Shown here one piece after another: positions 18,270 through 30,010 of a stretch of DNA of 64,000 bases. The position numbers and the translations under genes were made by a program. Positions within the stretch are counted from its first letter, which is position 1. Each line of letters opens with the position of its first letter. Source of the stretch: Rhizodiscina lignyota (lineage: Eukaryota). A model generated the notes under the pieces. That model was given only the letters and a program-made list of their open reading frames with translations. It made no database searches and was not told the DNA's origin. The stretch is from contig ML978122.1 of the NCBI GenBank assembly GCA_010015805.1, positions 2,576,453 to 2,640,452 of the forward strand. The letters run 5' to 3'.

Positions 18270-20293
18270 ATGGGGTCTCTAGGCGACGATATCATTCCGG
18301 AATCGAGTAGTGTCCTCGTGATCGGGGGAGGTCCAGGGGGATCCTTCGCAGCTACGCTACTTGCGCGCGAAGGGATCGATGTAGTTGTGTTGGAGGCAGC
18401 CGAATTTCCAAGGTACGTCCGATCGAAGCAGGATGTAAAAGGAAAAGGAGCGTCCAGCTGTCTGGATCTAATAATAAATAGTCTGGGCTGATCAAGCGTT
18501 AACTATAGATATCACATTGGCGAAAGCCTGCTCCCATCGGCCCGCTTCTACCTAAGACACATTGGCCTCGAGGAGAGATTTAACGTGGCGGGCTTTGCTG
18601 AAAAGGTTCGCAAAGGTTCCCTAATAGTAGTGTGAGCGTGCATATTAGTAGATGGTCGGCTGATGCCCAGCACAGCATGGCGCCTCCTTTAAGCTGAGCC
18701 CGAAGGCGGAAGCATGTAAGTGGCCGGATTCCTTAGTCGTAAATAAAAACTTCTACTTTGTTGCTGATCCTAGTCTAGACACAAATTTCAGCGCAATTAA
18801 TGGACGCGAGAACCATGCGTGGAACGTACTCCGATCGAAAGCGGACGATATCATGCTCAAGTACTCTGCCGAGTGCGGTGCCAAAGTCTTTGAAGGCACC
18901 AGAGTGTCGTCAATTGAATTCGTTCAGGCGGATGAGGACATGATCGATCCCGACGATTCGCGAGTCGCTAACCCAGGACGTCCCGTGTCAGCCAAGTGGA
19001 CGCGTAAAGATGGGCGCACCGGCACTATCAGTTTCGAATACCTGGTGGACGCCAGCGGGCGGGAGGGGCTTGTATCGACAAAGTACCTCAAGAATCGCCA
19101 ATTCAACCAAAGTCTCAAGAATGTGGCTACCTGGAGTTATTGGAAGTGCGCGAAGCGTTATGCGCCTGGCACGGAGAGAGAGGGACAGCCGTTTTTTGAG
19201 GGCCTGGCGGGTATGCTATCAGCTCGTATTACCGCATTTGAACGTGCCAATCGATAACTTGTCCCTTGCAGATCAGACCGGCTGGTGTTGGGCGATTCCA
19301 CTGAGCGCTGAAACGCTGTCAGTGGGCTTCGTCATGAATCAGAAATTGCTGGCGCAGAAGAAGGTGGCAATGGTAGATGCCACTGTTGTTGAATTTTACA
19401 AAAAGACTCTAGACCAAGTTCCTATCATTAAAGATCTACTCGCCGATGCGGTAATGGAAGGTGGGGTCAGGTCCGCTTCGGACTACTCATACCGTGCCAG
19501 CGCCTTCTCTGCGCCTTATACACGCCTAGTCGGCGATGCGGGCAGCTTTATCGATCCATACTTCTCCTCGGGTGTTCATCTGGCTATGACCGGTGCGTTT
19601 AGCGCGGCCATCACCATTCAAGCGTCACGGCGAGGTGAATGCTCCGAGCTCCAGGCCGGCAAGTGGCATTCGAGCAAGGTCGCGACGGGATACACGCGCT
19701 TCCTTATCATGGTCTTAGTTGCTATGAAGCAGCTCAATAATCAAAATGAGCCCGTACTGAGCGACTGGAGTGAGGACGGATTCGACAAAGCCTTTGACTT
19801 CTTTCGACCCAGTATGTTATCGTCATACAATACAACTCTCAGCTACTGACACGGAGTAGTCATCCAAGGCACCGCAGACTCGTATAATACGGGACGGAAG
19901 CTGACGCAGGGCGAGATAGACAAGACGCTCGAGTTCCTCATGACGCACTACAATCAGAATCTCGAGCCGGAGCAGCGGCAGTCTGTGCTCAACAAGCTGG
20001 GCAAGATTAAGCAGCAGAGTAGGGACACGGTGGAAGACCTAAAGCAGCTGTCGGAAGGCGAGTACAAGGTGCTCGAGATTATCAGGGCAAGAGAGATGCT
20101 CCCGATTGGGGAGGTGGTCGGGCTGTCCGATGTCTCGCAGGACATTTACGATGGGTATCACGCACGCATCGACCGCGGAAACTTGGGTCTGAGTCGAGTA
20201 GGCGGAAGCTCTGGGAAGAACGAGCAGAAGGACTCTTTTGGCACTATTTTGGGGAAGGAGCAAATGCAAGCTGAGCAGCAGTCGTTATCGTAA
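18270..20293 (+). CDS. Flavin-dependent halogenase (Rdc2/RadH-like fungal phenolic halogenase family)
   Basis: GGGPGG FAD motif, FPRYHIGES, FAEK-HGA (conserved Lys), WCWAIPL (WxWxIP), [28 protein letters not shown]; five introns splice into one open frame. Confidence 0.92.
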
Positions 20294-20400
20294 TATTGCA
20301 CGAGACGGCATTTTTTCGATGCTCAAAGATTTGTGTAGACAGAGAGGAATCGATCATGTAATGAACCGCGTCTACCATTGACCTCGAGAATGGGTGATTG

Positions 20401-21381
20401 CTACAGCGGCTTTTGCCCGTACACCAAGACATTCCCAAAAACCGCGCCTTGCTCTAACATTTCCTGCTCGAATCGTTCCGCCAGGTTGTCGAACACGGAC
20501 GCGGGGAGATCCAAGCCCATTGCTTTCGAAACATTAGCATTTACCAGAGTAACGACACGACGGCATACACCCACCCTTTGCGCCATTGCTAATATTCGGC
20601 ACCGCGAGCTTAAACGGCTCGAGCGAGTCCCGGGCGTCGCGCTCGTTGCCCATCTTCTTTCCCACGGGGAGCTGGACTCTCCGCACCTCGACGTTCGTGA
20701 GCCCGGCGCGTACGAACGCGTCCCCGAGATCGTTCACAATGGCGGCGCCGGGCCCGGTCTTGTTCCAAATGGCGGCCAGGATGCGCAGCAGGTCGCCGTG
20801 CGCCGTGCCCGGCGTCGGGTGCAGCACGTCGAGCTCCTGCACTTGCAGCCATGCGCCTGGGGAGAGCGTCGCTTGGGGTAAACATCACTCAGCTACATTC
20901 GCATACGTAAGTTCCTGCCAACTCACCGACGAGGTTGGAGACTGGATTGTCGATGCTGACGCTGCCGCAGCCAACGAGCAGGGAGCGGACGTGCGTGAGG
21001 TCGAATGCGCGCACGTGCTCTGCAGGAGGCGGGTCGCACACGTTGCCGACGGCGTAGCGGATATTGCCCTGCGGCGACTCCGGGAGGAAGGCAGCTGTCA
21101 AATCGACGCCGAAGAGCTGCGCCGAGGGCGAGACTTGCTTCTGCAGGTCGCGCAGCAGTGATCCTCTCACTGTTCAGAAAATAATCTCTTGCGGCCCTCT
21201 GGCACTCACCTTCGGCGCAACCAACATCCAAGACCTTCAATCCCGGCTTCTCGAGGTCGACCGCTGCGAAGACAATCTGGCCTTGCAGACAGGCTTGGTG
21301 CCAGGCATGCTGTTTCTGCAGGCGCTCTGCCTCGCGCTTCATCCTGCCCAAAGCATACTTTGCGTCTTCCTTCGCGGCCAT
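20401..21381 (-). CDS. Class I SAM-dependent methyltransferase (small fungal secondary-metabolism type)
   Basis: EAERLQKQH, VLDVGCAEG, LFGVDL, FDLTHVR, LSPGAWLQVQE; three GT-AG introns restore a continuous frame. Confidence 0.85.
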
Positions 21382-28166: not shown

Positions 28167-28560
28167 CATATGTAGACATCGAAAGATTACTCCTCTCGGC
28201 TGAATCGTGATGCTGGAGACTGGTGTCGTTAAATCTAATTACCTTTTTAGTGGCCGGTAAATACCGCACATCTGGTCTCACAAAGCTGCTCTCTGACCAC
28301 GAACGGATGTGACATTTTCAAGCAGACAAATGACAAGAGCTGCATCGTAAGCGCGCTACTCAGCTGACATACTTTAGCCGGATAAGTCGATCACAAAATC
28401 CCATGGCGTTCTTGCAGGTATCCACCCTTCTCACCCCCGTGATAGCCGCGGACGCATACGCGCACGCACATGTTAAGAAGCCCTGCCTCACTCGGCATGA
28501 CTTTCTCTCACCATTTCTAGAACATTTTCTTTTCGACCTTTGTACCTTTCCGTCGATCAC

Positions 28561-30010
28561 ATGTCCGGCACTCACAACTTGCGCGAATTGGCGCGCCAAA
28601 TCGCCAAAGACGTCACTGCTGTCGACGACTTCATTGTGTCCAACAAGCTGCCATATCCTTCCTCCACCGCAGACACACCTCTACTCTTTCCCGTTGACCC
28701 GAGCCATGGAGACGTCTACAAAGCTCGGATCGATGCGATCCAGGCGCTCGACTCGCTGCGTGGCCTATTATTGAGTCCGCCGGAGCGCGCAATGCTGCAG
28801 ATGTCCTCTGTGAACAACCGCTTCCTATCTACCACTCCAGCCCAGTTCGTTGCTAATGTTGTAGGCAGTACATGGAGACTGCTGCCCTCCAAGCCCTCCG
28901 CCGGTTCGACGTCTTCAAAGCCGTCCCGATCGATGGCCACGCATCGTACTCCCAGATAGCAGAACAATGCTCAATCCCAGAAGACAGGCTGCGGCGCTTC
29001 CTGCGCTATGCCATGGCATGCGGCTTCTTCGACGAGCGCGACGGCCTAGTGTCTCACTCGGCCAGCTCGGCAGTGTTCCTGCGCATCCCGCTGTGGTACG
29101 ACATGCTGGGAATGGTGACTGAGCTTGCGTTCCCCGCGATGCCGAACGTCGTGAATGCAATGCAGAAGTTCCCTGGCTCGTCTGAGCCGAATGAGACAGG
29201 CTTGAATGTCGCGTTTGGCATGGACAAGACTGCTTTCGAGTGGTTCGCCGAGGACGAGGCGCGGTCGGTGCTGTTTGCGAACGCGATGAAGGCGACGATG
29301 AGCGCCCCGGGGTATAATGCCGAGTTCATCGTGAAAGGGCACGACTGGGCTCGGTATTCGGACGGCCTGATTGTCGATGTAAGGAGACGCGCTCAAGCTT
29401 CCGCGCATTCGTTGACTGATTGAAGTAGGTTGGGGGATCGAATGGGCACGTCTCCGTACAGCTTGCCAAACAGTTTGCGAACCTGAAGTTTGTGGTTCAG
29501 GATTTCCCGAGCGCGTTCAAGGACGCGGCGGAATCCGTTCCCAAGGATCTCAGGGTCAGAGTCGAGTTCATGGCTCATAATTTCTTCGAGACACAGCCGA
29601 TTCGCGGGGCCAGTGTGTACCTGCTGAGATGGATTCTGCACGACTGGTCGGATCCGTACTGCGTCAAGATCCTTCGTGCACTCGTGCCTGCTCTGCGGAA
29701 CGGATCACGCATTCTCATTGCTGACAATACAATGCCGCCGCGTGGTTCTCTGCCGAACCATGAGGAGAAACTGCGTTCGTACGTTCCCGTGTATCATTCT
29801 TCAGGATAGCAGTCGCGCTAACAGTGTTCTAGATTTGCGGATTTGATGATGATGGCTTTTCACAACTCGAAAGAACGAAGTCCGGAGCAATTCTGGGCTC
29901 TGTTTCAAGAGGCAGATCCGCGGTTCAAGCTAGTTGAGTTTCGCCAGCCGGAAGGTAGCTCGCTTGGCTTCATGGAAGTTTTGTTCGAAAACGAATCAGA
30001 AGAGCCGTAG
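28561..30010 (+). CDS. O-methyltransferase (COMT-type, fungal secondary-metabolite OMT)
   Basis: DVGGSNGH across an intron, FVVQD, AHNFFETQP, LRWILHDWSD, NSKER; three introns (the first has a weak GTGAAC donor). Confidence 0.9.

Follow-up and report, generated by a model that had tools for sequence, protein, structure and literature searches.

To our knowledge, the products of synthetases with an adenylation-thiolation-thioesterase (A-T-TE) architecture, namely, terphenylquinones, bis-indolylquinones, and furanones, are diversified only by tailoring enzymes. Pathways of this class have been characterized for terrequinone, uscandidusin, aspulvinone, butyrolactone, ascocorynin, and allantofuranone, and none of these is described as having a halogenase in the relevant sections of a recent account (PMC12105029). 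In this study, we analyzed a 64-kb stretch of the genome of Rhizodiscina lignyota (contig ML978122.1, positions 2,576,453 to 2,640,452; referred to here as the window and numbered from its first base). R. lignyota belongs to the order Aulographales of the Dothideomycetes, and it was sequenced within the 101-Dothideomycetes project (PMC7082219). Positions 18270 to 30010 of the window hold five adjacent, intact genes, which begin with the ATG of a halogenase gene at 18270, continue through genes for a methyltransferase (MT1), a nonreducing nonribosomal peptide synthetase-like (NRPS-like) A-T-TE synthetase, and a cytochrome P450, and close with the stop codon of an O-methyltransferase (OMT) gene that ends at 30010. 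This locus is a real, intact, and compact group of genes and a putative orphan secondary metabolite cluster of a Dothideomycete, predicted from gene adjacency and composition. We favor, with moderate confidence, a reading in which the five genes serve one pathway that combines keto acid dimerization, P450 oxidation, chlorination, and methylation by the OMT and perhaps by MT1.

An earlier annotation of this DNA, made from the sequence alone and referred to below as the original prediction, knew of no characterized cluster with this combination of genes, and the open-access full-text literature bears it out. No characterized A-T-TE cluster with a halogenase was found in open-access full text, and a search there for a halogenase together with NRPS-like or terphenyl terms returned one match, which concerned the halogenase of another pathway. 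The words "NRPS-like" and "terphenyl" are also absent from the text of a 2022 review of fungal halogenation.

The exon models were built by following the translation in all three frames wherever the frame switched, with GT-AG introns of 46 to 106 nt chosen by hand, and the stop-to-stop open reading frames (ORFs) of the window were surveyed together with Pfam scans. None of the five models contains an internal stop or a frameshift; all exons are open, and all introns are canonical GT-AG introns. Three of the models (halogenase, synthetase, and P450) correspond to public database proteins at 100% identity. The halogenase model is P0122, letter for letter, and the P450 model agrees with P0242 in length and, by eye, in sequence; in both cases, a search with a single exon returned the full-length protein, and both entries are R. 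lignyota proteins by source name. The synthetase is P0002, again at 100% identity. The gene boundaries of the original prediction and its claim of five adjacent genes spliced into intact frames are therefore confirmed. Its assignment of the five genes to the halogenase, methyltransferase, A-T-TE synthetase, P450, and OMT families likewise holds.

The halogenase gene (18270 to 20293, plus strand) has six exons (18270 to 18412, 18509 to 18605, 18676 to 18715, 18779 to 19210, 19272 to 19811, and 19860 to 20293) and encodes a 561-aa flavin-dependent phenol halogenase of the RadH/Rdc2/GedL type. The protein matches the RadH crystal structure 8gu0 over residues 9 to 531 with an E value of 8e-160 and is 50% identical to the sulochrin halogenase GedL. 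The flavin adenine dinucleotide (FAD) motif GGGPGG, the catalytic Lys of HGASFKL, and GWCWAIP, which holds the WxWxIP motif, are all present and aligned to their RadH counterparts, so that the protein combines the full-length homology, GxGxxG sequence, catalytic Lys, and WxWxIP motif of its family. Its named relatives are GedL, AclH, and AscD, the latter two carrying names assigned by similarity, and all are of the polyketide pathway type. Together with RadH as the best structural match, these relatives agree with the statement in the original prediction that Rdc2/RadH-type halogenases are known from polyketide clusters.

The core gene of the cluster is a single exon (21963 to 24803, minus strand) that encodes a nonreducing NRPS-like synthetase of 946 aa. 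Pfam placed an AMP-binding domain at 54 to 419 (1.9e-37), a PP-binding domain at 601 to 666 (1.1e-9), and a Thioesterase domain at 701 to 952 (1.6e-26) and detected no condensation domain in the 946-aa protein. The enzyme thus has the A-T-TE order in one polypeptide that defines its family, whose members are about 920 to 960 aa long and have no condensation domain. Residues were assigned to motifs by reading an alignment of 16 sequences, all 16 of which share T177 to S180 (A3, TSGS), E338 (A5, TE), D422, R437, and K539 (A10). The carrier Ser612 and the thioesterase (TE) residues Ser754, Asp879, and His921 are invariant in the same 16 sequences, as is Val222 within DHVAN. Val222 may be the equivalent of GrsA position 235.

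The identity of the keto acid was considered through specificity position 5, which is Thr302 in the R. lignyota synthetase and Ile in the same column of AcyN. This column probably corresponds to GrsA position 299. The column is in agreement with the residue numbers quoted in the passages of PMC10316625 that treat this position, where 302 is matched by PpaA1 Val302 and CorA Ile298. According to the same passages, polyporic acid synthetases, which use phenylpyruvate, carry Ile or Val at position 5 (CorA Ile298 and PpaA1 Val302), atromentin synthetases, which use 4-hydroxyphenylpyruvate, carry Asn (NPS3 Asn323), and mutation of this position relaxes the specificity of these synthetases (PMC10316625). 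Thr302 is neither Ile nor Val, and a polyporic acid synthetase of the AcyN, CorA, HapA, PpaA1, or AlfA type is ruled out by this marker; an atromentin synthetase is ruled out in the same way, given Thr and not Asn. Among the 120 best relatives, the column reads Ile in 78, Thr in 15, Ala in 15, Val in 5, Pro in 3, Leu in 3, Gln in 1, and Asn in 0. Thr at position 5 is common to the R. lignyota enzyme and its six closest relatives (P0003 to P0008), and this Thr clade carries the motifs EALVV and IH(N), versus EANVV and IY in the AcyN group. A second group of 15 relatives (including P0018, P0021, and P0026) has Ala at position 5, mostly with ANPVE and IHA, and smaller groups have Pro, Leu, or Gln there; these groups fit neither the Ile/Val nor the Asn rule and may represent several uncharacterized specificity types.

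Phylogenetic placement led to a similar picture. A FastTree phylogeny of the 120 sequences put the synthetase in a clade of 7 with a support of 0.998, which rises to 1.0 when P0020 is added, and put AcyN in a separate clade of 22 to 29 sequences (support, 0.84 to 0.99). AcyN (P0019; 46% identity) is the only protein bearing the name of a characterized enzyme among the 120 best relatives and, hence, is the sole characterized anchor of this tree; the closest relative of the synthetase is P0003, at 53% identity. The keto acid cannot be predicted, since phenylpyruvate and 4-hydroxyphenylpyruvate users are told apart at the very position where this enzyme has Thr. The original prediction had named a terphenylquinone or bis-indolylquinone as the candidate product, but the product class is not readable from the core enzyme, because the synthetase falls outside the AcyN clade and has Thr at position 5. 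The bis-indolylquinone synthetases of the TdiA type use indole-3-pyruvate and are partnered by TdiB to TdiE, which include a prenyltransferase, a reductase, and an aminotransferase. The ORFs scanned across the 64-kb window included no gene for a prenyltransferase, a quinone reductase, or an aminotransferase.

Of the three tailoring genes beside the halogenase, that for the P450 monooxygenase (26445 to 28166, plus strand; 503 aa) has four exons (26445 to 26661, 26768 to 27633, 27690 to 27800, and 27849 to 28166), two of which match the Pfam p450 family at 3e-25 and 2e-21. P450 enzymes are recognized by the heme-thiolate motif FxxGxxxCxG, the ExxR motif, and the AGxDTT motif, and an I-helix AGADTT, an ExxR sequence (EALR), and FxxGxxxCxG can all be read in the model. 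Structural and feature lookups returned generic ascomycete P450 clusters only, and the closest relative, P0243, is 55% identical. There is a precedent for the hydroxylation that the original prediction ascribed to this enzyme, in that the P450 MO6277 converts polyporic acid to ascocorynin in the sections of PMC9047271 devoted to that step; the order of steps that it proposed remains conjecture.

The OMT gene (28561 to 30010, plus strand) encodes a class I OMT of 428 aa that is Methyltransf_2 type and GedA-like, in four exons (28561 to 28809, 28869 to 29378, 29429 to 29778, and 29833 to 30010). Exon 3 matches Methyltransf_2 at 1.2e-17 (cutoff, 22.3 bits), and its solved relatives are GedA (7wh9), the best at 1.5e-21, and LepI at 1.3e-15; among solved structures, exon 2 is closest to HpiI (8.5e-11). 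The S-adenosylmethionine (SAM) motif VDVGGSNG crosses the junction of exons 2 and 3. The protein therefore has the features of a class I OMT, that is, a Methyltransf_2 match, a glycine-rich SAM motif, and homology to solved small-molecule OMTs. The junction of exons 1 and 2 was placed from the letters, with a probable donor at GTGAAC (28810) or GTCCTC (28803); both keep the frame and differ by one residue.

MT1 (20401 to 21381, minus strand) is a putative LaeA-like class I SAM methyltransferase of 275 aa in four exons (21381 to 21210, 21163 to 20927, 20871 to 20575, and 20522 to 20401). Taken exon by exon, it has no Pfam match. Exon 3 has 46 relatives at an E value of ≤1e-3 among 1.84 billion representatives, and 4 of the 8 MT1 relatives scanned reach the Methyltransf_23 cutoff. 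Motif I reads VLDVGCAEG, with GCAEG (Ala for the second Gly) where the relatives have GCADG, and a family profile gave only weak matches to methyltransferases in the Protein Data Bank, with a best E value of 0.018. The predicted 46-nt first intron was chosen because five full-length relatives read GCAD-GSLL at this point. An alternative acceptor six bases upstream would give a protein of 277 aa, and the alignment of the relatives fixed the second acceptor; a 40-nt first intron, which gives CAEVRGS, was dropped since the alignment with relatives supports the 46-nt intron.

From these parts, we infer how the five genes could act on one scaffold. The A domain would adenylate an aromatic alpha-keto acid and load it onto the carrier Ser612, and the TE, through Ser754, Asp879, and His921, would join two such units into a symmetric diaryl core. 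This core would be a 2,5-diaryl-3,6-dihydroxybenzoquinone, with a furanone being less likely. We did not find a reductive dehydratase of the AlfC/UcdB type in the cluster, and this suggests that the quinone, if formed, is kept. The P450 would then oxidize the scaffold, most simply by aryl hydroxylation, and the halogenase, with FADH2, O2, and chloride, would chlorinate it ortho to a phenolic or enolic hydroxyl. The GedA-like OMT would methylate a hydroxyl, and MT1 may add a second methyl group (to a quinone hydroxyl or a carboxyl) or may have a regulatory role. The common scaffold, the substrate, and the ring type are all presumed in this scheme, and the sequence from P450 to halogenase to methyltransferases is purely conjectural. 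The one-pathway reading draws its support from the intact genes, the presence of the catalytic residues, the single core gene, and the raised GC content at third codon positions (GC3) that the genes share, as well as from the divergent intergenic region and the suggested conservation of a synthetase/P450 pair. It is further supported by precedents for the single steps, which are the hydroxylation of polyporic acid (PMC9047271), the OMTs of terphenyl pathways (PMC12105029), and the halogenases that act on free phenols.

The synthetase and P450 genes are transcribed divergently from a 1.6-kb intergenic region (24804 to 26444, no strand assigned), in which no ORF with a family match was found and which we regard as a putative shared promoter with a presumed regulatory role. 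The GC content is 0.42 in the 24- to 26-kb bin. From about 25050 to 25440, the region contains an extremely AT-rich, low-complexity tract, which is followed by a GC-rich 22-nt tandem repeat at 25548 to 25593. The AT-rich tract could be the degenerate remnant of a repeat of the kind left by repeat-induced point mutation.

Several observations weigh against a single pathway served by all five genes. The cluster has no transcription factor, transporter, aminotransferase, or DAHP synthase, and no promoter motif of at least 8 bases is shared by the four upstream regions; three 7-mers do occur in all four, and these were rejected as evidence given their frequency elsewhere in the window. The core enzyme has no characterized clade-mate, which makes the scaffold a guess, and a word-limited search found only 4 relatives of the P450. 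Conservation of the full gene set was also not detected. We examined 78 metagenome loci around relatives of the synthetase, 44 of them flanked by 5 kb or more on one side and 21 on both, by tblastn with the five proteins (E value, ≤1e-3); most of these loci lie outside the Thr clade, and none of the 78 contains a homologue of the halogenase or MT1. Weak, partial matches of 25 to 57% identity were obtained for the P450 in 8 loci and for the OMT in 8 loci. The four closest loci (L001, L015, L038, and L073) have short or gene-poor flanks, with L001 and L015 being the closest metagenome relatives at 53% and 60%. Finally, among the 120 halogenase relatives listed, none is on a contig sized like that of any of the 7 clade members or of P0020, a comparison that carries weight chiefly for P0003 (24 kb) and P0004 (715 kb).

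We consider rather unlikely an alternative in which the synthetase and P450, perhaps with the OMT, make up the pathway and the halogenase and MT1 are bystanders that serve a dispersed pathway, such as one for a polyketide, or have no role. The sole hint of conservation concerns the pair that this alternative would retain. P0003, the synthetase relative at 53% identity, and P0243, the P450 relative at 55%, are each found on a 24308-bp contig, in both cases of the same source class, which suggests a conserved synthetase/P450 pair in one relative. Synteny elsewhere thus extends at most to this pair, and the halogenase was found beside no fetched relative. Along with its absence, and that of MT1, from the 78 loci, the alternative is favored by the polyketide pathways of all the characterized relatives of the halogenase and by the OMT, whose best solved relative, GedA, comes from the same geodin pathway as GedL. 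Tailoring genes of A-T-TE enzymes are also known to lie outside the clusters, at least in the system treated in the cited sections of PMC9047271.

The surroundings and the base composition of the locus speak against bystanders. Among the ORFs scanned over the whole 64 kb, the A-T-TE synthetase was the sole biosynthetic core gene; none coded for a polyketide synthase (PKS), an NRPS, a terpene synthase, or a second NRPS-like enzyme. It follows that no core gene but this one is close to the halogenase. Both the halogenase and MT1 genes are directly beside the core gene, with no unrelated gene between. The GC3 of the five cluster genes ranges from 0.621 to 0.797, versus 0.433 to 0.625 in 15 flanking ORFs, for which values from stop-to-stop ORFs may be slightly lowered; there is a single overlap, and the cluster gene has the higher value in 74 of the 75 cluster-versus-flank pairs. 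The halogenase (0.635) and MT1 (0.797) genes are raised in GC3 like the other three cluster genes. Their surroundings differ in this respect, with values of 0.47 for the left neighbor of the cluster (an NLR-type gene) and 0.455 for the right (a DUF6540 gene), so that there is a sharp step at both borders. This step may point to a shared foreign origin or to strong selection on codon use.

A different order of events, which we judge to be improbable, would place halogenation first, with a free aromatic amino acid or arylpyruvate being chlorinated, accepted by the Thr pocket, and dimerized from halogenated units. This is in keeping with a Thr at position 5 that is the residue of neither the phenylpyruvate nor the 4-hydroxyphenylpyruvate users (PMC10316625, in the passages on this position), and a smaller polar residue could admit a ring substituent. 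However, the same Thr is found in the six closest relatives (P0003 to P0008), for which no linked halogenase was detected, and enzymes of the RadH/GedL type are known for late-stage halogenation of phenols. Moreover, no departure from the usual substrates is known for any nonreducing NRPS-like enzyme, as far as the discussion of specificity in PMC12105029 extends. It is likewise doubtful, to a similar degree, that the uncharacterized Thr-marked clade of the core enzyme uses an aromatic alpha-keto acid beyond the three known substrates, for example, a chlorinated arylpyruvate supplied by the neighboring halogenase. There is little likelihood, too, that the cluster is silent or nonproductive in nature, an intact genomic relic with no current product, as the missing transcription factor, the possibly degenerate AT-rich tract in the putative shared promoter, and a gene set with no detectable conservation elsewhere might be read. 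Against this, no exon is interrupted by a stop, the introns are all of the canonical GT-AG type, none of the catalytic motifs checked is damaged, and the high GC3 suggests ongoing codon selection and not decay.

The genes around the cluster are of other kinds. The left neighbor is a large NLR-type gene (10909 to about 17226, minus strand) with a NACHT/NPHP3_N NTPase, long ankyrin arrays, and a weak PigL_N-like piece at the N terminus. Its ankyrin array runs on in frame past a single stop at 12127 to 12129, where the ORFs 12127 to 16554 and 10909 to 12126 abut, and this could be a premature stop or part of a stop-bearing intron. On the right, a DUF6540/DUF6914 gene (30054 to 30581, minus strand) begins 44 bases past the OMT stop, and its low GC3 (0.455) speaks against its belonging to the cluster; the right flank continues with a hydrolase, an NmrA-like gene, DcpS, and other housekeeping genes. 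The nearest transcription factor is of the Zn2Cys6 type (44356 to 45888, plus strand), 14 kb to the right and beyond housekeeping genes, and nothing ties it to the cluster. Abutting same-frame ORFs split by one stop were also seen in genes for a peptidase M13 (41116 to 42246), a HET-domain protein (52007 to 53884), and a YVC1-like channel (60495 to 63998); these pairs are probably introns with in-frame stops and not pseudogenes.

In summary, the favored reading is that of a single five-gene pathway around a Thr-marked synthetase. If this reading is true, it would add halogenation to the A-T-TE class of compounds, give a phenol halogenase a new scaffold, and provide the first functional reference point for a synthetase clade with a position-5 residue that fits neither known rule. 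Were halogenation instead to precede dimerization, the products would be the first natural products that are dimers of halogenated arylpyruvates. The locus is a reasonable target for genome mining with a gene combination that we did not find described, and it is one predicted orphan cluster among the very many of fungi. Because it is compact (11.7 kb and five genes), a test by heterologous expression would be easy.

Set beside the described systems, the R. lignyota cluster shares parts with several of them. The alf and ucd pathways, which were compared by description only, likewise start from an A-T-TE core and proceed to terphenyl O-methylation (AlfD and UcdC), with hydroxylation in addition for ucd (PMC12105029, in the sections on these two pathways). 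In contrast to our cluster, they have no halogenase and need a bifunctional reductive dehydratase (AlfC and UcdB), and neither the ring cleavage dioxygenase of alf nor the prenyltransferase and aminotransferase of ucd was found in the R. lignyota cluster. The ric (rickenyl) cluster of Hypoxylon rickii resembles it in having an A-T-TE core and several OMTs and in the methylated terphenyls that are its proposed products; that cluster is itself only predicted, and a halogenase and a P450 are not among the features given in the portion of the report that describes it (PMC8403587). The ascocorynin pathway of Ascocoryne sarcoides is similar in its A-T-TE core, AcyN, and in a P450 that hydroxylates the aryl ring of the quinone (PMC9047271). 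Unlike the cluster in R. lignyota, the acy cluster includes a transcription factor and a DAHP synthase but no halogenase or methyltransferase, and its P450, MO6277, is unlinked, as described in the parts of that study concerned with the cluster (PMC9047271). AcyN also belongs to another clade than the R. lignyota synthetase, with Ile instead of Thr at position 5. The halogenase resembles RadH, Rdc2, and GedL in its full-length match to RadH, its FAD motif, its catalytic Lys, and its WxWxIP motif. Those enzymes sit in polyketide clusters, such as those for radicicol and geodin, whereas the R. lignyota halogenase adjoins an NRPS-like core only.

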